A stretch of DNA of 64,000 nucleotides, taken from positions 800,001 through 864,000 of the forward strand of contig OY970332.1 in NCBI GenBank assembly GCA_963717435.1, read 5' to 3'. The notes beneath the pieces were generated by a model, which searched no databases, was not told where the DNA came from, and was given only the letters and a program-made list of their open reading frames with translations. Position numbers and translations under genes: made by a program. Positions 142 to 30,748 of this stretch are shown here, in pieces; within the stretch, counting starts at the first letter, position 1; every line of letters starts with the position of its first letter. Origin of the DNA: an uncultured bacterium. Its GTDB lineage: Bacteria; Babelota; Babeliae; Babelales; Babelaceae.

Positions 142-146
142 GACCC

Positions 147-233
147 ATCCCTCGATACACCCAGGCTACGCTAAAGCTTCCGACTTCGCCAAGGCTTCGA
201 CGGACGCGACGCCGGGCACTCGGGACGAGCGGG
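147..233 (-). repeat. Palindromic element (type A) with two small hairpin modules (type B) nested inside
   Basis: ATCCCTCGATAC...CACTCGGGACGAGCGG is the reverse complement of the element ends; interior holds GGCTACGCTAAAGCTTC and CCGACTTCGCCAAGGCTTCGACGG. Confidence 0.9.
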
Positions 234-276: not shown

Positions 277-1716
277 TTAGAGAATAGATAATATTCTTTC
301 AGTTGCTTCTTGGGTTCCCAACATACTAATAAGATCTTTTATGCTCGGCCCATTTTCGATGCCCATTAAAGATATTCTTAGTATCCCGTAAAGATTACTC
401 TTACTGGCAAGATTTTTTTGCTTGCACGTAGCTTGTAGGTTATTAATAAATAACTGCGGGTTATTAATAGAGCCAGATTTCAGCTCAGCTTTTATTATAT
501 CTTTGAATTCTGAGATATTTAGCTTCTCTAAATTTTCTTTAATATCTTGGGTGATTTTTGGACGCTCAAAATAGAAAGCCAGCCTGTCAGCTGCTTCAAC
601 CAGCGTGAACAGTTCACTGTGAACAAATTTAAGTAGACTCTCAAGTTGATCTTCTGTCAGATTTTTTGCAGACGCAAATCTGTTTTCTATAAACGGTCTT
701 GTTCTTACTGCTAGCTCTTTTATATCAAGAAGTTTTAGCCAGCTATGGTTAACCCAGCGTAGCTTTTCAAGATCGTACCGTATTTTACTAGTTGAAGCGA
801 TCTCTTCAAAATTAAGCTCTTTTGATAGCCCTTCAAGATTCATGATCTCTTTTTTGAACGATCCGCCAATAATTGCAAGATAGTTGCATATAGCTTCAGG
901 TATGAACCCTGAATTTTTAAGATCATCAAGCGAAAAGCCGAAGTCTCTCTTGGATAGCTTTTTGCCCTCATGATTTATAATTATGGGCAGGTGCCAAAAA
1001 ACTGGGATAGGGGCGTTAAAGGCCTCGTATAGTGCAACTTGTCCTGCAGTGTTTGTAAGATGGTCCTCACCTCTGAATATATGGGATATTTTCATCACCA
1101 TATCGTCCACGAAGTTGGCAAACATAAATGTAAAACTGCCATCTTGCCGGGTTAGGGCAAAGTCTGAAAAATGGCTAAGATCAAAACTCATGTTCTTGTG
1201 GCCAAGATCAAAAAAGTTAACTTTTTTTGTTGAGTCTAACTTGAAGCGCCAAATAAACGGCATATTTTTTGCCAAATTTTCTTCTATTTTCTCTTTTGGC
1301 AGATTAAGACAGGTACGGTCATACTTTGGGGGTAGCTTTAAAGCTAGTTGGCGCTGTCTCTTTCTTTCAAGCTCTTCTTGGGTGCAGAAGCATCTATAAA
1401 CCAGATTTTTAGTTTTTAAAATCTCAAGATGGGTTTTGTATATCTCTGTCCGTTCAGATTGGTAATATGGCCCATACTTTTCTGCTCTACCCGGTCCCTC
1501 ATCAAACTCAAGATGCAGCCAGGAAAGATCGGCCATAATTTTATTTGCTCGAGGGTCGACATTGCGCTGTTCGTCCGTATCTTCTATGCGTAAAATGAAC
1601 GTGCCATTTTTCTGCTTTGCAAATAGATAATTGATTAAGGCTGCCCTTACATTACCCAGATGCATAACCCCAGTTGGTGAAGGGGCAAAGCGTACGCGTA
1701 TAGAACTATTATTCAT
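277..1716 (-). CDS. gltX: Glutamate--tRNA ligase
   Basis: RVRFAPSPTG, HLGN (HIGH-like), LRIEDTD, RGEDH, KLSKR (KMSKS-like); start placed at second Met of the ORF. Confidence 0.97.
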   Translation of the reverse strand: MNNSSIRVRFAPSPTGVMHLGNVRAALINYLFAKQKNGTFILRIEDTDEQRNVDPRANKIMADLSWLHLEFDEGPGRAEKYGPYYQSERTEIYKTHLEILKTKNLVYRCFCTQEELERKRQRQLALKLPPKYDRTCLNLPKEKIEENLAKNMPFIWRFKLDSTKKVNFFDLGHKNMSFDLSHFSDFALTRQDGSFTFMFANFVDDMVMKISHIFRGEDHLTNTAGQVALYEAFNAPIPVFWHLPIIINHEGKKLSKRDFGFSLDDLKNSGFIPEAICNYLAIIGGSFKKEIMNLEGLSKELNFEEIASTSKIRYDLEKLRWVNHSWLKLLDIKELAVRTRPFIENRFASAKNLTEDQLESLLKFVHSELFTLVEAADRLAFYFERPKITQDIKENLEKLNISEFKDIIKAELKSGSINNPQLFINNLQATCKQKNLASKSNLYGILRISLMGIENGPSIKDLISMLGTQEATERILSIL

Positions 1717-1863
1717 CGCAAATCCTGTCAAATCCTGAACTATTTTTTAATTTAAAAAACTGACTTTAGCTTTAATATACTACAAAAAAGTTATCTTTGA
1801 CATATGTAAATTAATTTTGTTAGGGTTATCGCAAAAAGGAACTCTTTAAAAAAGGAGAATAGT

Positions 1864-2142
1864 ATGAATAAGTGTGTACGAATAACCTGCAGTCTTTCAA
1901 AATTTAATGCAAAGATCCCTCCCGAGATACAGAAATATGCCAAAAAATATATTGTTGAGGGATTTGTTCAGGTCGCTCCTGAACAGCTCCAGATAACAGC
2001 CTGCGGCCTTAAAGATAACGTAGATTTGTTTGTCGATATTATACACAAGATCTGTGTTCAGGACCCGGAAAAAGATCTTCTTGAGGTTGAGCCATTTTTG
2101 AAGGACAAAGATTACCGGGGTATATTTAGAATAATAGAGTAA
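1864..2142 (+). CDS. Acylphosphatase-fold protein, apparently degenerate
   Basis: 92 aa; AcyP-like pattern (A..Y.VEGFVQ...QITACG...VDLFV...F.II) without the GxVQGVxFR loop; AGGAG RBS. Confidence 0.55.
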   Translation: MNKCVRITCSLSKFNAKIPPEIQKYAKKYIVEGFVQVAPEQLQITACGLKDNVDLFVDIIHKICVQDPEKDLLEVEPFLKDKDYRGIFRIIE

Positions 2143-2220
2143 TTTTGCTTATATTTCCCCCAAGAAATTATTAAATAGTTATGCTATAATAACTCTGTTT
2201 AGTGGTTTTTTGGGGGGACA

Positions 2221-5200
2221 GTGAGACTTATTAGCTTTATCACAAGATATATTAAATTTTTTTGGGTTCTTGTCTTTACCAGTTTTTTAAGTTTTTTAAT
2301 TAACGCTTCCGGTTTTGATATAGATTTGAATTTGGATTGGCAAAAAATCGGGTCGATTTTGGATACAAAATTGCCAGATAAATTTCTGCTTTCAAGTTTT
2401 GATTTAGAATCTGATTTGTCTATAGACAATTTTGAAAAAAACTTGCTGTTTGATTTTGAGATTGGCAAAACTCTGTCGCGTGACAAAATTAAATTTGTGT
2501 TGCTAAATTTGCGAAAAAAGAGCCGATTTGAGTCTGTTAGAGTTGAGCTTGAAGAATTAAAACCCAACAACTATAAACTATTTTTAAGACTAAAAAGTTT
2601 TTGGATATTCTCCAAAGTTAAAATAAAAACCAGAATCTCAGATAAAAACAGATATTTGCAGAGCTATCTTTTAAAGTTTGGCGAAAAATTTGATAAAGAA
2701 AAGCATCAGCATTCTGTAGAAAAAATAAAAAGTGAGCTGCAAGCTGACGGCTACTTGGGCGCCAATGTAATAGACGAAATAAAACTTGATGAAGCAAGAA
2801 AAACTGTTTCTGTTAATTTGACATTAGAAAACTTGAAAAAGTTTGTTATAAATAGTTTCGATATTAAAATTACTTCAACAAGTGGCGAATTTGAAGATAA
2901 AAATCTGCTGCATAGTAAGCTTTTAAAAATTGCCAATTCTGATCTTAATAATAGTTACTATAACAAAGCTGTTATAGATAAATTTGCTCAAACAGTTAAA
3001 AATTATTTATTTAAACACGGCTATTTTGTAGGCAAGATAGGCTTTCAAAATTTTATCGATTATAAAAATCATAAAGTAAAAACTGATTTCTCTGTAGAAC
3101 TTGCCTATAAGAAAAAGCTTATCTTTTTTGGTAACCATTTTTTTGATAATAATCAGTTGATTTCTGAATTAGTAGTTTTTGGTCAGTCTGCGCTTTTAAT
3201 GCCCGCCTCTATGCTTGTTGACCAACTTGAGACTTTATATAAAAAACGGGGATTTTGGGACATCAAGATAGATTACAGGGACGAGCAGGGTTCTTATTAT
3301 TTTGTTATTAACGAGGGTTGTAGGGCAAAGATAGATTGCGTTGAGATTATTGGTGCAAGTCTTGATAGCAAGCTTGATAATAAGCTTGAAAATAATTATC
3401 AAGAGTTAATTAACAGTTGTTTTGGTGAGCTAACAAAATCTAAATTTTTTGATTCCCAAACATTAAAGCAGTCGTTAGATAAGCTCAAAAATAGATACAT
3501 GCAAGATGGTTTTTGGGATTTTTCAGTTATTGAACAAAAATTTGTGTCTGTTAATTCAGAAAGTAATTTAGAAAGTAATTCAAAAAATAGCCCCGAAAAT
3601 AATTCGGGAAATTACAAACTTATTTTGCAAATAGAAGAGGGTCCGCAAAGACTTCTTGGGCAAGTAGAAATAGAACGTTTTCCGGAACTATTGCAAATGG
3701 GACCATTTGCAGATTTTTATCAACTAAAAACAGCTGTCCCGTTTAATATTAATATTATAAAAGAGCAGCGGGATTATATCTCTAATTATTTAAAACAAAA
3801 CGGTTATATTTACACTTATTGTAACCCGGAATTTGTTCAAGATAATAATACTAATAATAATTCGGGCTTATTAAAGCTTGTTTGGAAAATCGTTGGCGAA
3901 ACTAAACCGGTCAGGTTTGGAAAAACAATAATCCAAACCAATTCGAAGGTTCCAACAGAAATTATAATGCGTGAGCTTGATTATAAAGAAGGGCAAATTT
4001 GGAGCAAAGAGAAGCTTGAGCGTTCTTTGAAAAATTTAAAAAATTTATCGATGTTTGAATATGTTACTTTGGCCCCATCAGAATTTAACAAAGCCGAAGA
4101 GAATAAAGACATAATATTAAAAGCGCTGTCAGACGACCCGTTTGAGATCAGAACGCGTATCGGGTTTCAGCTTGTTAGTAATAATCTTATAATTTTTAAT
4201 GGCGGGTATAGTTACAAACTTGGTGGTAGCTTGCTATGGAAAAACCCGTTTAATCGAGCAGATATATTAAGAGTTGACGCAGATTTTTCTAGATATAAAT
4301 CAGATGTTGTTGCCGCTTATGAAGTTCCCTGGATTTTTGGCTCATCGATAAGAACAACTTTTAAGGGTTATCGATCACGATATGATCAGCCATTTGTTTT
4401 TGGCTCACCGCAAATTTTATATAAAGCTTCTCAAGAGGGAATTTTGGTTGAGTTGAATAAAAATTTTAGCCATTGCGATTTTGTCTCTAATTTTGGTTTT
4501 GAATTTATGAAAATTAGCGATCTTTCACGTACGCTCGCAGCTTTTATAGACTACTGCCCAATACTTGTCGATTGCAGGATCCCGTATCTGTTTTTTGAGC
4601 CATCTATTTTTATCGACCATCTTGATAATAAATTAGAGCCGTCGCATGGCAGTTTAACTGTTATGTCTTCAAAACTTATGGGCGCACCACATTTGCCTAG
4701 ATCTTACTTTTTTAAAATATTATTTGAACGATCAAATTTTTACCCAATATTAAGTAATATCTCTAATAATATAGTCGGTGCGTTTAGGTTGCGCTTTGGC
4801 TATATTTTTAACCCAGAGTTTAGCAATATTAACCCGATAGAAAGATTTTATCTTGGCGGTGCTTATTCAGTTAGAGGCTACGAACAAGATAAGGCCCCGC
4901 CTGTAAATTTCACGAAACTATCTCCAACTGGTCAACCTGAATGTATTGTTCAGCTTGGCGGAAAAGCGATGGTTAATATTAACACAGAGCTTAGATTCCC
5001 GATTTACCAATCTTTTTCTGGGGTTGTTTTTAATGATATCGGCGCACTTGCCCAAGATAAAATTACAGATATTATCACAAGTAATTTTGTCGGTTCTACT
5101 GGTTTTGGGCTTCGTTATAACACACCTGTAGGCGCACTTAGATTTGATCTTGGATTTAAATGGAAAAAACGCTTTGTTGGCGACTCGCCATATGCATGGT

Positions 5201-10333: not shown

Positions 10334-10464
10334 AAATTAATTTTTTATGGTTCGATACACCCGTCACCTGATCCCGCGCTCGCCCTGAGTGTTTTTCGAA
10401 CGTAGTGAGAAAAATGTATCGAAGGGTGCCGGGCACTCACCACGAGCGGGTAAAAAATTAATTT
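10334..10464. repeat. Composite nested palindromic element, copy 1
   Basis: 14-bp inverted flanks 10334-10347/10451-10464; outer type A (-) 10347-10449 encloses inner type A (+) 10377-10427. Confidence 0.92.
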
Positions 10465-13356: not shown

Positions 13357-15300
13357 ATGCCTGAAAAAAATAAATTTTACGTTACAACCCCAATATATTA
13401 CGTCACGGCCAAACCCCATTTGGGATCGCTATACTCAACATTGCTTGCAGATGTTGCTGCAAGATGGGCAAAACTGTCTGGCAAAAAAACTTTCTTTTTA
13501 ACAGGTACTGATGAGCATGGGCAGAAGGTTGCTGCTGCTGCAGAAAAAGCGGGTAAATCACCTAAAGAGTTTGTGGATAGTTTTATACCAAGTTATAAAA
13601 AAATCTGGCAAGAATATGGCATAAATTATAACCATTTTATAAGAACAACAGATCCGGAGCATATCAGTGCGGTTCAAAAATGGATCGCAGATTTGCTCAA
13701 AAAAGACGAAATATATAAATCTGTTTATCGTGGTTGGTATTGCGTATCTGATGAGACTTTCGTCGCAGAGATTCATGATAGCGTGACGCCGCAAGAAGCG
13801 CCGCTATGTCCGTCTTGCCAACGAAAAACTATCGAAGTTTCTGAAGATTCTTATTTTTTTAGACTTTCAAAATATCAAGATAAATTATTAGAGTTTTACA
13901 AAAACAATCCTGATTTTATTACTCCAAAAGAGAGACTTAACGAGGTTATAAGTTTTGTTAAAGAGGGTCTTAAAGACCTAAGTATTTCTCGAACAACAGT
14001 TAAGTGGGGGATCCCATTTCCGGGTGATCCTGAGCACACTGTATACGTTTGGGCCGATGCCCTTAACAATTATATAACTGCTATAGGTTACGGTCAGCCA
14101 CATAGAAAAGACGAATTTGAATTTTTTTGGCCAGCAGATCTGCATGTCTTGGGTAAAGATATAGTCAGATTTCATGCCGTATTTTGGCCAGCCTTTTTGA
14201 TGGCCGCAGATCTTGCGATGCCCAAGAAATTGTTGGTTCATGGCTGGATCAAAGTTGGCGAGCAAAAAATGTCCAAATCTTTGGGCAACGCTATAGATCC
14301 TGAAGAGATTTTCAAAAAATATGGCCCTGATCCAGTGAGATATTATTTAACCAGACATATGGCCATAACCCAAGATTCTGAATTTTCAATACCTGACTTG
14401 GAACAAAAAGTAAGTTCTGAACTTGCAAATGATTTAGGGAACTTGCTCAATAGAACCTCGGCTTTGGCGCAGAAAAATAATTTAGAATATATAAATAGCC
14501 CGCGCATCTGGTCGGTCGATTCTTTGGAACTTAGAAATCAGTTTTGGGACGTTTTGGAGCAGTTTGAACTTGATATGCAGGACTGCTTTTATAACAGGGC
14601 GCTAAATAATCTTTGGAGATATATTAATCTGGTTAACGCATATTTTCACAAGCATGAGCCCTGGAAATTGGCAAAATCTAATCCAGAATTATTTCATGAG
14701 GTTATGGCTGCAACATGTAACAGTTTGCACTGTATAGCGATATTACTGCTTCCGGTTATGCCCCATAAGATGGAAGATCTGCTTGAGTCTATTGGCATAG
14801 AATTAGATTTTAATAAAAATATAATTGCTCAACTTGAAGATGATAATTGGGAAAAGCAGTTTAAGATTACCCCAATTGCGCCGCTTTTTGAAAAAATTGA
14901 ACTTAAAGAAGAGAATTTAAATTCTGGGAATAAGATGCAAGAAAATATCGAAAATAAAGAAACTTTAAAAAATTATATAACTATAGACGACTTTTTAAAA
15001 GTTGAGTTGCTTGTTGGTACTATAAAACAGTGCGAAGAAATTGCGGGCTCGGATAAGCTGCTTAAACTTCAAGTAGACTTTGGGCCATCTGGGATAAAGC
15101 AAATATTATCGGGCATTAAAAAGTCTTTCGCGCCTGAAGATTTAATTAACAAACAAGCTGTATTTGTGTTTAATCTTGCACCTCGAACAATGATGAAACT
15201 TGAATCCAACGGCATGTTGTTAACAGCGGGAACTCCTGATGGAAAACTGTCTTTGGTATCACCTGCAGTTATGGTTGAAAACGGAACAAGATTAAAATAA
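13357..15300 (+). CDS. metG: Methionine--tRNA ligase with C-terminal tRNA-binding OB domain
   Basis: FYVTTPIYY, HLG, GTDEHG, YVWADAL, KMSKS; C-terminal ITIDDFLKVELLVG domain. Confidence 0.97.
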   Translation: MPEKNKFYVTTPIYYVTAKPHLGSLYSTLLADVAARWAKLSGKKTFFLTGTDEHGQKVAAAAEKAGKSPKEFVDSFIPSYKKIWQEYGINYNHFIRTTDPEHISAVQKWIADLLKKDEIYKSVYRGWYCVSDETFVAEIHDSVTPQEAPLCPSCQRKTIEVSEDSYFFRLSKYQDKLLEFYKNNPDFITPKERLNEVISFVKEGLKDLSISRTTVKWGIPFPGDPEHTVYVWADALNNYITAIGYGQPHRKDEFEFFWPADLHVLGKDIVRFHAVFWPAFLMAADLAMPKKLLVHGWIKVGEQKMSKSLGNAIDPEEIFKKYGPDPVRYYLTRHMAITQDSEFSIPDLEQKVSSELANDLGNLLNRTSALAQKNNLEYINSPRIWSVDSLELRNQFWDVLEQFELDMQDCFYNRALNNLWRYINLVNAYFHKHEPWKLAKSNPELFHEVMAATCNSLHCIAILLLPVMPHKMEDLLESIGIELDFNKNIIAQLEDDNWEKQFKITPIAPLFEKIELKEENLNSGNKMQENIENKETLKNYITIDDFLKVELLVGTIKQCEEIAGSDKLLKLQVDFGPSGIKQILSGIKKSFAPEDLINKQAVFVFNLAPRTMMKLESNGMLLTAGTPDGKLSLVSPAVMVENGTRLK

Positions 15301-15308
15301 CTTTAGAA

Positions 15309-15438
15309 AAATTAATTTTTTATGGTTCGATACACCCGTCACCCAATCCCGCGCTCGCCCTGAGTGTTCTTCGAAGCTTGGCGAAGAAGAATGTATCGAA
15401 GGGTGCCGGGCACTCACCACGAGCGGGTAAAAAATTAA
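15309..15438. repeat. Composite nested palindromic element, copy 2
   Basis: Near-identical to 10334-10464; outer type A (-) 15322-15426, inner type A (+) 15352-15404, different innermost hairpin. Confidence 0.92.
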
Positions 15439-15458
15439 AATACTTTTAGAAAAAATTT

Positions 15459-17537
15459 GTGATTTTAAATAAAATTTATAACAAATTTAAGATTATTGGA
15501 TTAAAGCGAACGTGTGAGCTTGTAAAAAACAAGTTTGCCAGTTCGCTTTTTTTGTTCTTAAACAGAAGACGGGCAAAAATAACCCGTTATATGGGCAAAA
15601 CTGCAAATTACAGTTGGCCGGAAGTCTCGAGTAAATTAAAATTTGATAAAGATTTTGAAAAATTCTGGGAAAATTTTTGCAACAAAAAATCTTATATTAA
15701 TTTTAATAATTTTTTAGAAACTTTAATAACTGATTATAATCTTGATAATCAGGCAAGCATCCCAGATAAAAACTGTGTTAAACTTCTTCAAGAATTCTCT
15801 TCCCCGCTCGTCCCGAGTGTTCTTCGTAGCTTTAGCGTAGAAGAATGTATCGAGGGATCGAGTAAACCCAAGTGGCACTATGATCTTAACGGGTTTTATT
15901 TTGACGCAAATATTTTTTATAAAGACATAAAAATACAAGCTAATATTGGGGAAAATATCGGGCCGGATATCAGAACACTGTGGGAAAAAAACAGATTTAA
16001 TAATATTTTTTTTCTGGGCATAAATAATTCACCGGACAAATTTTTCAGTGACATAAAAGACTGGATAGATAAGAACCCATATTTATATGGGCCCAATTGG
16101 GTTTGCCCGATGGAAGTAGGAATCAGGTCGGTTAACTGGGTTTTGGGCTTTATGTTTTTTAAAGACATAAAATTTGGTGAGCCAAAACAGAAATTTGAGT
16201 TTTGGGAAAAATTTATCTGCTCACTTTATGACCACATGATTTTTATAGAACAAAATTGGGAAATTTATGATACACGAACAAATAACCATTATTTGTCAGA
16301 TCTACTGGGGTATTATTACTTATTAATATTTTTTGATAGTTTAGGCGCAAAAAATTTAAAATCTAAAATTATTTGGGTAAAAAAAGAGTTTTTAAAAGAG
16401 CTTGATAAGCAGATATTACCCGACGGCTCTAGTTACGAGGGCTCGACGGCTTATCATAATTTAATTTGTGAAATAGTTTATTATTTTAAAATTTTAAGTG
16501 ATCAAGAAGAGTTAAAAAATAATTATAATAAATTACTCGACCAAAAATTTAAAAATATGTGCCAATTTGCAAGTTATTTTTATCTTCAGGACCCTAAAGT
16601 TAAAATACCGAAGCAACTTACGCCGCTCGTCCCGAGTGTTCTACGAAGCTCAAAGAGCGAAGTAGAATGTATCGAGGGATGGCGGGGGCAAAATTTTGTG
16701 ACAATAGGCGATAACGACTCGGGCAAAATTGTCGCGGGCCTGCCTGAAAAATTTTTTAAAGTTACTAAATTTGATAACTTGCCCGAAATTGCGCACTTTA
16801 AGGATTTTGGAGTATCTGTTTATAAATCACCGAATATACACATAACTTTGCGCCATCATGCATATAATAAATTACAACCAAGTGCTCATTTCCATAACGA
16901 TTTTTTAAGTATCACGTTAGCAATAAACAATATTCCGGTTATTATCGATCCTGGTTCTTATGTTTATACCGCTTCAAGTTATTGGCGAAATTATTTTCGC
17001 AGCGCTGAATCCCATAATGGGTTTTATATTAAAAATTTAGAACCTGTCAAACTCGATAATTACAATCTTTTTGCTCCCGATATTCCCGAAAAAATTCTAG
17101 AAAATAATAGTCTAAAAAATAATAATGGCATTAAAAAATCGATAGTGTCTAGTCACGAGCTTTATAAAAATCTGGGCCTAAGAGCGGCAAGAAAAATTGA
17201 ATTAGAAAATTTAAATAAAAATATAATTGTCACAGATTCCTGGGATAGTATTTGGGAGAATATTAATAAAACAAACTTAGAAAATCTTGAGAATCTTACA
17301 ACTGTCTGGAGCTTGATTTTGCACCCAGATATTAAAGCAATAAAGCGGACAGATAAGTCTTGGGATCTTTTTTACAACAATATTAAACTTGCGAACATAA
17401 GCTCCAAAGATCTTGATTTTGAAGCAGATTCCTCATGGGCAAGTTTTGTTTATGGCGAAAAAATCGCTGCAACCAGATTAGCCGCGCAAAGCAGCTTGAA
17501 ATTAAAAAATTATGGCTGGCAGATAACTATTTTTTAA
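15459..17537 (+). CDS. Heparinase II/III (alginate-lyase-like) family protein carrying two in-frame palindromic inserts
   Basis: WH.D, WEKNRF, NW.CPMEVGIRS.NW, NNHYLSDLLG, DGSSYEGSTAYH, IGDNDSG, H.HND.LS, IDPGSYVY, FRS..SHN. Confidence 0.88.
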   Translation: MILNKIYNKFKIIGLKRTCELVKNKFASSLFLFLNRRRAKITRYMGKTANYSWPEVSSKLKFDKDFEKFWENFCNKKSYINFNNFLETLITDYNLDNQASIPDKNCVKLLQEFSSPLVPSVLRSFSVEECIEGSSKPKWHYDLNGFYFDANIFYKDIKIQANIGENIGPDIRTLWEKNRFNNIFFLGINNSPDKFFSDIKDWIDKNPYLYGPNWVCPMEVGIRSVNWVLGFMFFKDIKFGEPKQKFEFWEKFICSLYDHMIFIEQNWEIYDTRTNNHYLSDLLGYYYLLIFFDSLGAKNLKSKIIWVKKEFLKELDKQILPDGSSYEGSTAYHNLICEIVYYFKILSDQEELKNNYNKLLDQKFKNMCQFASYFYLQDPKVKIPKQLTPLVPSVLRSSKSEVECIEGWRGQNFVTIGDNDSGKIVAGLPEKFFKVTKFDNLPEIAHFKDFGVSVYKSPNIHITLRHHAYNKLQPSAHFHNDFLSITLAINNIPVIIDPGSYVYTASSYWRNYFRSAESHNGFYIKNLEPVKLDNYNLFAPDIPEKILENNSLKNNNGIKKSIVSSHELYKNLGLRAARKIELENLNKNIIVTDSWDSIWENINKTNLENLENLTTVWSLILHPDIKAIKRTDKSWDLFYNNIKLANISSKDLDFEADSSWASFVYGEKIAATRLAAQSSLKLKNYGWQITIF
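15804..15858 (+). repeat. Type A palindromic element, intragenic and in-frame (PLVPSVLRSFSVEECIEG)
   Basis: CCGCTCGTCCCGAGTG-TTCTTCGTAGCTTTAGCGTAGAAGAA-TGTATCGAGGGAT. Confidence 0.95.
16623..16680 (+). repeat. Type A palindromic element, intragenic and in-frame (PLVPSVLRSSKSEVECIEG)
   Basis: CCGCTCGTCCCGAGTG-TTCTACGAAGCTCAAAGAGCGAAGTAGAA-TGTATCGAGGGAT. Confidence 0.95.
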
Positions 17538-27853: not shown

Positions 27854-27904
27854 GCCGCTCGCCCCGAGTGAAATTCCGTAGGAATTTAGTATCGAGGGGT
27901 CGGC
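27854..27904 (+). repeat. Type A palindromic element downstream of gatA
   Basis: GCCGCTCGCCCCGAGTG-AAATTCCGTAGGAATTT-AGTATCGAGGGGTCGGC. Confidence 0.9.
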
Positions 27905-30579: not shown

Positions 30580-30634
30580 CCGCTCGTCCCGAGTGTTTTT
30601 CGTAGCGCAAGCGAAGAAAAACGTATCGAGGGAT
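30580..30634 (+). repeat. Type A palindromic element (left member of inverted doublet)
   Basis: CCGCTCGTCCCGAGTG-TTTTTCGTAGCGCAAGCGAAGAAAAA-CGTATCGAGGGAT. Confidence 0.92.
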
Positions 30635-30694
30635 GGCGGTAAACACTAATATTATATAATAATTTATATATTTTTATAATTGCAAAAAATGCTC

Positions 30695-30748
30695 ATCCCT
30701 CGATACAATCACCTTCACTACGTTTCGGTGATCACTCGGGACGAGCGG
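30695..30748 (-). repeat. Type A palindromic element (right member of inverted doublet)
   Basis: ATCCCTCGATACA-ATCACCTTCACTACGTTTCGGTGAT-CACTCGGGACGAGCGG. Confidence 0.92.

Follow-up and report, generated by a model that had tools for sequence, protein, structure and literature searches.

In-frame copies of a dispersed hairpin element in an intact heparinase II/III-family gene of a Babeliales bacterium, and a small GIY-YIG nuclease gene as the element's candidate partner

How does an enzyme gene come to carry the same palindrome twice and remain readable as one open frame? The question is raised by a heparinase II/III-family gene in a 64,000-nucleotide stretch of DNA (hereafter, the window; positions 800,001 to 864,000 of contig OY970332.1, GenBank assembly GCA_963717435.1), which is part of the single 1,198,203-bp contig, with 34.6% GC, of an uncultured member of the Babeliales (Dependentiae) with a genome of the amoeba-parasite type. 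The gene is an intact open reading frame (ORF) of 692 amino acids with a GTG start (15459..17537, + strand), and it holds two copies of a short hairpin-forming element in the same orientation and the same frame, with exactly the peptides and codons given in an earlier reading of the window (the original prediction). A dispersed palindromic element has entered this intact and conserved gene twice, independently and in frame, and below we relate the two insertions to the other copies of the element, to their hosts and to a small nuclease gene that the element frames.

Copy 1 (15804..15860, + strand) encodes PLVPSVLRSFSVEECIEG at codons 116-133 (15804-15857), whereas copy 2 (16623..16682, + strand) encodes PLVPSVLRSSKSEVECIEG at codons 389-407 (16623-16679); the repeats proper lie at 15805-15860 and 16624-16682, and a covariance model of the element gives them spans of 15799-15866 and 16618-16688, respectively. 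Both are built on one DNA motif, namely CCGCTCGTCCCGAGTG, an inner hairpin and TGTATCGAGGGA, with unlike inner hairpins (TTCTTCGTAGC..GCGTAGAAGAA in the first, TTCTACGAAGCTC..GAGCGAAGTAGAA in the second). The left arm of the motif is matched four times in the window vs 0.01 expected and the right arm six times vs 0.07 expected, and both copies fold better than 200 of 200 shuffled sequences (z of -3.80 for copy 1 and -4.49 for copy 2). Reading of the sequence confirms that each of the remaining two forward frames of copy 1 contains TAG. The copies stand just before two family motifs, as had been noticed: in copy 1, ECIEG is followed five residues on by WHYD (the WH.D motif), and in copy 2, ECIEG is followed eight residues on by the conserved IGDNDSG. 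The two copies are 78.8% identical, while their nearest counterparts elsewhere in the genome reach 90.6% (at 300.5 kb) and 89.4% (in a phosphoglucomutase gene, at 749.8 kb); because each is closer to copies elsewhere than to the other, the insertions are independent, which upholds the view first drawn from the differing inner hairpins.

The host gene belongs to the heparinase II/III family. Both Pfam domains are over their gathering cut-offs, Hepar_II_III_N at residues 197-378 (E 2.2e-9, 37.6 bits vs a cut-off of 22) and Hepar_II_III_C at residues 442-630 (E 2.1e-17, 63.9 bits vs 24), and the alignment profile of the protein family matches the heparinase III structures 5jmd and 4mmh. The database form of the protein has 648 amino acids and starts at M45. 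A homolog search with the host protein gave 541 relatives at E<=1e-3 among 7999 scored candidates; the best 120 of these 541, which we used for comparison, are 31-42% identical to it and mostly unnamed or labelled Babeliales or Dependentiae, and six-frame tblastn finds the gene in 47 of the 140 other genomes of the order. It could be argued that the gene is decaying and that the inserts are pseudogene debris, as the same genome has a fragmented groEL gene and is reduced, with a marker completeness of 88.8%. However, the ORF is intact, the window's protein retains 71 of the 71 family-invariant columns in an alignment of 24 sequences (the window's protein and 23 homologs), both domains score over their Pfam cut-offs, AlphaFold2 models the protein with confidence except at the inserts, and a strain about 5% diverged shares insert 1. 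We hold decay of the gene to be very unlikely.

Comparison with the homologs sets both segments apart as additions, the columns of inserts 1 and 2 being gapped in 23/23 of the aligned homologs. Among 119 homologs from the best 120 of 541, the 19 columns of insert 2 are empty in every one (119/119), and in the 47 genomes with the gene the tblastn match of the protein mostly falls into two pieces that part around residues 330-366 of the query, the place of insert 2. The 18-column span of insert 1 holds five residues in 109 of the 119 homologs, none in four, one in two, and four, six, eight and 14 in one each. The expectation that orthologs would reveal two insertions of about 18-25 amino acids is thus borne out for insert 2, whereas insert 1 amounts to a net gain of about 13. 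Insert 1 was also found in metagenome contigs of other studies that bridge both of its junctions, one over 15704-15854 with 0 differences (X4 record 22) and one over 15800-15985 with 9 differences in 186 nt (X1 record 4). It is therefore no artefact of this assembly and, being shared with the diverged strain, it is older than that strain divergence.

With regard to the protein, an AlphaFold2 model made from the 24-sequence alignment has a mean predicted local distance difference test score (pLDDT) of 76.5 and a predicted template modelling score of 0.83. The inserts, at 72-89 and 345-363 in the 648-amino acid numbering, fall in its two longest segments with pLDDT below 50 (55-91 and 346-368). 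In the model, insert 2 comes after the last N-domain helix (313-331) and before the strands with which the C domain begins (from 400), and the profile alignment to heparinase III (5jmd) likewise skips this inter-domain stretch. The loop location that had been suggested for both inserts is thus matched by the model, in which they would sit in a loop or a linker, although this is a fit and not a proof, low pLDDT being expected there anyway.

Both copies belong to a large family. Pairing of left- and right-arm patterns, with at most three mismatches per arm, yields 94 distinct copies in the genome (95 pairings), and an nhmmer profile run over the whole genome yields at least 117 at E<=1e-3. The element is 56-62 nt long and has invariant stretches (GCTC, GAGT(G) and GTATCGA) between variable but complementary stems: a 4-bp stem occurs as TCCC/GGGA, CCCT/AGGG, TGGT/ACCA, TGCC/GGCA or TACT/AGTA, an inner stem of 6-7 bp takes many complementary forms, and compensatory changes are present at 10 of the 12 pairs given by RNAalifold for 51 copies. 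Where two copies have cores that are 93% identical or more (93 pairs), the similarity of their flanks is usually gone 1-5 nt outside the core, and therefore the unit is approximately the core itself; about eight nested composites, including one upstream of the heparinase gene, share a flank of about 25 nt. The copies show no bias of replication strand (49 of 94 on the leading strand) and none of orientation with respect to the neighbouring gene (42 sense vs 39 antisense after gene ends). According to a rough ORF map, 88.7% coding, the 63 intergenic copies favour gene 3' ends, with 29 in convergent, 6 in divergent and 28 in co-directional gaps, as compared with 179, 178 and 812, respectively, among the 1169 intergenic gaps of the genome.

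Such a distribution brings up the possibility of a functional motif at the level of the transcript, for example a hairpin that stabilises mRNA or acts like a terminator, or a protein-binding RNA whose internal loop resembles a kink-turn; on this view the copies in ORFs would be incidental. The strong compensatory covariation, the invariant bases of the internal loop and the location of the intergenic copies at gene 3' ends agree with this idea, and the loop may be drawn, in a reading by eye, as tandem G.A pairs with a 3-nt bulge. Against it, the orientation after gene ends is unbiased, the copies within ORFs run both ways round (19 in the orientation of the gene and 12 opposite), and no Rfam family is found at E<=1 over 15200-16800. 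Moreover, a nuclease gene framed by inverted copies, described below, points to recognition at the DNA level, and in the Ssn system of hairpin nucleases RNA is described as not bound (Chenal et al. 2025, PMC11893778). We consider a transcript-level role unlikely.

The heparinase gene is only one of the hosts. Counting ORFs of at least 150 amino acids with at least 25 on either side of the element, 29 of the 117 copies lie inside ORFs (a looser earlier screen had given 28 copy-ORF combinations), and about 24 further ORFs besides the heparinase gene hold in-frame copies. Pfam families were found for 17 of the 20 host ORFs tested, the other three being without a family. The named hosts are SufBD, PGI, RecR, a PRTase-like protein, MurB (two copies), GpsA, a SpoU methylase, MnmG, a PMT-like protein (two copies), a transketolase-like protein, asparagine synthase (AsnB), a class-I aminoacyl-tRNA synthetase (two copies), a Mur ligase, phosphoglucomutase (PGM), a GT1 glycosyltransferase, NurA and MiaA. 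In the case of MnmG, query residues 146-171 are without counterpart in the solved structure of the E. coli protein, which passes from 152 to 154, and in the case of RecR, query residues 135-172 stand opposite the passage from 132 to 136 in the solved structure of D. radiodurans RecR. Most in-ORF copies are located between or outside Pfam envelopes (GpsA, SpoU, transketolase, AsnB, the aminoacyl-tRNA synthetase, GT1 and both heparinase copies), whereas those of RecR, MnmG, the Mur ligase, NurA and MiaA are within them. Five of the six frames are used, in both orientations, and in the copy that was read the sixth frame contains a stop. In-ORF copies show no clear difference in preservation from the other copies (median nhmmer score 57.8 vs 46.8, p 0.07; equal minimum free energy per nucleotide), in a test whose model is biased, 24 of its 51 seed sequences being in-ORF copies.

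Copies in ORFs need not in principle reach the protein. The byp elements of some yeast mitochondria are bypassed by the ribosome, and the in-ORF copies might similarly be bypassed, or excised from the mRNA, for which stable GC-rich hairpins in an AT-rich genome (fold z from -3.8 to -4.5) would be suitable. In that case one would expect to see stops and frame shifts, as the host would put up with them, but the host frame is open at every copy in a recognisable gene, in a screen that itself requires an open frame, and none of the 13 co-directional gene pairs tested around intergenic copies is a gene split by the element. We regard it as very unlikely that the in-ORF copies go untranslated. As a separate observation on this genome, its sole groEL (Cpn60; 176545-178120, - strand), which lies immediately downstream of a copy of the element and a groES that is itself intact, is broken up over four or more reading frames.

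What might move such an element? Five GIY-YIG matches are found in the genome and a single one is flanked by the element. This is an ORF of 94 amino acids at 1,066,108-1,066,389, outside the window, bordered by a + copy that scores 77.4 bits and a - copy that scores 85.1 bits, so that hairpin, nuclease gene and inverted hairpin form a unit at 1,066,021-1,066,472 (locus L183, 1405-1856). Pfam assigns the protein to GIY-YIG only, and an NCBIfam search with the three small GIY-YIG proteins of the genome gave nothing over cut-off. The other two of these, of 79 and 82 amino acids, are of a different subtype and are encoded without flanking copies (1,023,036-1,023,275 and 413,544-413,792), and a GIY-YIG remnant with an internal TAG is present at 200,267-200,425. 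The cumulative GC skew of the genome, lowest at about 499 kb, peaks at about 1,067 kb, and the element-flanked unit is placed at this peak, close to where the replication terminus is presumed to be.

Close homologs of the 94-amino acid nuclease (E<=1e-18) occur in 34 of the 140 other genomes. The element is present in 29 of these 34 genomes vs 26 of the 106 genomes without a close homolog, a comparison in which related genomes are not independent. At 29 homolog loci, the gene is flanked by the element on both sides (+ ... -) in 14, on one side in seven and on neither in eight. In five genomes of other phyla that carry the element, a nuclease match was found in all; the closest, from Sphingomonadaceae with 51% identity, is flanked by copies on both sides, while two other close loci are not. 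That the element goes together with a small GIY-YIG nuclease gene is thus well supported, by evidence that is correlative.

The spread of the element was followed at three levels. An exact pattern proved too strict, with 45 matches in this genome, one in a single relative (G057) and none elsewhere among 60 relatives. A covariance model built from 51 copies, with a threshold of E<=1e-3, finds the element in 55 of the 140 other genomes of the order, belonging to at least 15 of 21 families, with the invariant bases kept. In a genome of another genus (G032), the 18 top-match loci include in-frame copies in DnaG primase, a VanY-like protein and a 526-amino acid ORF without a Pfam family. Among 29 heparinase-ortholog loci, three contain model matches, six in total. 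One of them, from another Babeliales family (G107), is an ortholog of 733 amino acids with two in-frame copies at sites other than those of the window's gene, one of them reversed and past WH.D, the other within the C domain (locus L273, G107:C24, ORF 535..2736, - strand); in another genome (G009), copies flank the heparinase gene. The homologs P0113 and P0118 have lineage-specific inserts that are like translations of the element, a resemblance of peptides only, and for P0118 the 12 pattern matches in metagenome contigs gave zero confirmed copies. Homologs from other metagenomes (P0012, P0086 and P0119) likewise have inserts specific to their lineages; these contain peptides such as LRSGRTG, FGSAQDKL and RGEPCRTM, look like translations of other GC-rich repeats and suggest that more than one type of repeat has entered this gene family.

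Finally, a scan of one genome per species with a loose 16-base gapped pattern gave at least 120 stretches; 80 loci among the matches listed were given to the covariance model, whose 35 matches at E<=0.01 told copies from chance. Among the matches listed, model-confirmed loci are labelled Babeliales, TM6 or Dependentiae, and the hairpin core, with compensatory stem changes, also occurs in metagenome-assembled genomes labelled Myxococcota, Sphingomonadaceae, Allosphingosinicella, Dehalococcoidia and Solimonas. The copies outside Dependentiae are at loci L068, L087, L091, L107, L126, L128, L134 and L277.

A number of known systems resemble the present one in part. The Rickettsia palindromic elements (RPEs), of about 150 bp, were described by Ogata et al. 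(2000, 2002), as summarised in a review on MITEs, miniature transposable elements with inverted repeats (PMC10969869). As described there for the RPEs, we find a dispersed palindrome that sits in frame in many housekeeping genes, unrelated to one another, of an obligately intracellular bacterium, with frames that stay open and predicted positions that fit the fold (PMC10969869). The RPE-like case in another intracellular lineage that had been proposed from the heparinase gene therefore stands, extended by the further host ORFs of this genome and by genes in two other genera. The likeness is one of behaviour. The Babeliales element is shorter, with 56-62 nt as against the RPE length given in the review (PMC10969869). 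Unlike the RPEs, moreover, it is read in five of six frames and in both orientations, hence no single conserved peptide results, it belongs to the phylum Dependentiae, and a candidate coding partner, the GIY-YIG nuclease, is at hand.

The architecture, in turn, is like that of the Ssn systems. Chenal et al. 2025 (PMC11893778) report that SsnA binds the NTS hairpin only as single-stranded DNA and cuts upstream of it, that the loop of the NTS is dispensable, and that an NTS-ssnA-NTS arrangement can be likened to an insertion sequence. The Babeliales unit has the same layout of hairpin, small GIY-YIG gene and inverted hairpin, and it shares with the Ssn repeats, as characterised there, the tens to hundreds of gene-less hairpin copies, the variable stem and loop with conserved flanks, the enrichment in symbionts and loosely similar flanks (TCAT/TCGT-CCC ... 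GGGA-TC; PMC11893778). It differs from them in having an additional conserved internal loop and a second stem, and the nearest solved relatives of its nuclease, which looks UPF0213-like by sequence comparison, are UPF0213 proteins (1zg2 and 1ywl; 1e-14). Rickettsia is among the genomes that the same paper counts as rich in SRM repeats, R. felis having been used for the definition of the motif. The one Dependentiae genome tabulated, Babela massiliensis, is entered there with 0 SRM and without an SsnA homolog (PMC11893778, supplementary file 7). The terms 'intragenic' and 'open reading' are absent from its main text, where intragenic copies are not treated (PMC11893778). It was the only paper from 2025 on Ssn GIY-YIG hairpin repeats found in our literature search, which returned no description of such repeats for Dependentiae, TM6 or Babela massiliensis and no paper linking GIY-YIG to the RPEs. 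What we describe is RPE-like behaviour joined to Ssn-like architecture, and the many in-frame insertions of a hairpin element are the new part.

Short imperfect palindromes, often in inverted doublets and with a single-copy partner gene framed by repeats, also recall the repetitive extragenic palindromic sequences (REPs) and their paired form, the REPINs. REPs are extragenic. It may be asked whether a REP-associated tyrosine transposase (RAYT, of the Y1 type) moves the element as a repeat of the REP/REPIN type, or whether the element is an ordinary MITE moved by the transposase of an insertion sequence, given its many inverted doublets and a hairpin with a conserved 5' flank. However, a six-frame search of the genome for the Y1 (IS200/IS605-like) transposase family PF01797, the sole transposase family searched, gave no match, while six of the 14 genomes used as controls do match; copies inside genes, which are not a feature of REPs, make up a quarter of the total; and the GIY-YIG nuclease is the only gene found framed by copies. 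As to the MITEs, the element is like the intragenic ones in being a small non-autonomous repeat able to create in-frame fusions (PMC10969869). The sporadic cases named in that review, ERIC, Coxiella QMITE1 and the Anabaena MITEs, are derived from insertion sequences and have terminal inverted repeats and target duplications (PMC10969869), neither of which was seen here. We rate movement by such transposases as the least credible of the alternatives considered.

All together, our results lead us to propose that the two segments of the heparinase gene are gene-less copies of a small hairpin element dispersed in this genome and in much of the order. By analogy with SsnA, the 94-amino acid GIY-YIG nuclease would probably recognise the folded hairpin in single-stranded DNA and cut beside it, and this cutting would somehow lead to copies of the hairpin at new sites. 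Copies that land in genes would persist only if the frame is open and the protein tolerates 15-20 extra residues. The heparinase gene would then hold two independent survivors, one in the variable N-terminal region before WH.D and the other in the linker that joins the helical N domain to the C domain, a beta-sandwich; both are presumably translated, forming loops at the surface. To this explanation we assign a probability of roughly 0.8.

Several points weigh against this reading. GIY-YIG enzymes cut DNA and do not join it. No target duplication was noticed at the flanks of the 93 pairs of near-identical copies. The link between nuclease and element is correlative, the element being present also in the 26 genomes without a close nuclease homolog and missing from five of the 34 with one, and eight of the 29 homolog loci have no adjacent hairpin. 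The nuclease, with UPF0213 proteins as its best solved relatives, is not a demonstrated member of the Ssn clade, and the element does not fall among the published repeats: the SRM motif matches the genome once, at no copy of the element (shuffled genomes give 0-3 matches), and the NTS consensus does not match it at all. In short contigs from four DNA runs, neither an empty site nor any piece across the whole stretch was found. With respect to the protein, the low pLDDT at the inserts is expected regardless of their location, as no aligned homolog covers those columns, and we infer translation of the inserts from the intact frames only. The broken groEL, for its part, may reflect either indel errors of the assembly or real gene decay.

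A broader idea can be advanced tentatively, as a doubtful one. In-frame palindromes of intracellular bacteria, possibly including the RPEs, may be gene-less hairpins of minimal GIY-YIG nuclease elements; these would be tiny pan-bacterial mobile DNAs, made of a hairpin pair and a gene for about 94 amino acids, which would spread via single-stranded DNA and act quite generally as a source of new loops and linkers in essential proteins.

The window holds other copies of the element. Directly upstream of the heparinase gene, between metG and the gene, there is a composite nested copy, as had been reported (15335..15430, - strand), in which an inner + copy (15352-15406) lies within the apical part of an outer - copy with a TGGT/ACCA stem (P2); taken as one unit, the composite does not fold significantly (z -1.08, with 30 of 200 shuffles as good). 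The inner copy of another composite nested unit is intergenic at 10377..10429 (+ strand). A short intergenic copy of 47 nt is located downstream of an amidase gene (27856..27902, + strand), and a long intergenic variant of 87 nt, with an extended inner region, is found at 145..231 (- strand). Between two convergent genes, the intergenic copies at 30581..30636 (+ strand) and 30693..30747 (- strand, with an ATCACC-type inner stem) are the left and right halves of an inverted doublet. The same arrangement, an ATCACC-stem copy together with a TTTTTCG- or CCCGACG-stem copy, recurs in eight further places of the genome, with partners 10-55 nt apart and mostly between convergent genes, in a REPIN-like manner.

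The heparinase locus has three copies within 1.3 kb, and it had been suggested to be a hotspot. The case for this is weak: clusters of at least three copies within 1.5 kb occur four times in the genome, this locus being one of them, whereas random placement gives a mean of 1.03 and a maximum of 5 (1000 trials), and three genes besides the heparinase gene have two copies each. Clustering thus points to a general habit of the element and to no special property of this locus.

Selfish palindromes that colonise essential genes in frame have for 25 years been known mainly from Rickettsia, without a mechanism. The element described here provides a second and denser case in an unrelated phylum, with 29 in-ORF copies in 1.2 Mb, and it belongs to an order-wide family that reaches other phyla. 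It comes with a testable candidate for the recognising enzyme, and thereby joins the hairpin-specific single-stranded DNA nucleases to the question of protein sequence made by repeats. The host genes, in addition, form a natural catalogue of sites at which conserved enzymes tolerate loops of 15-20 residues.

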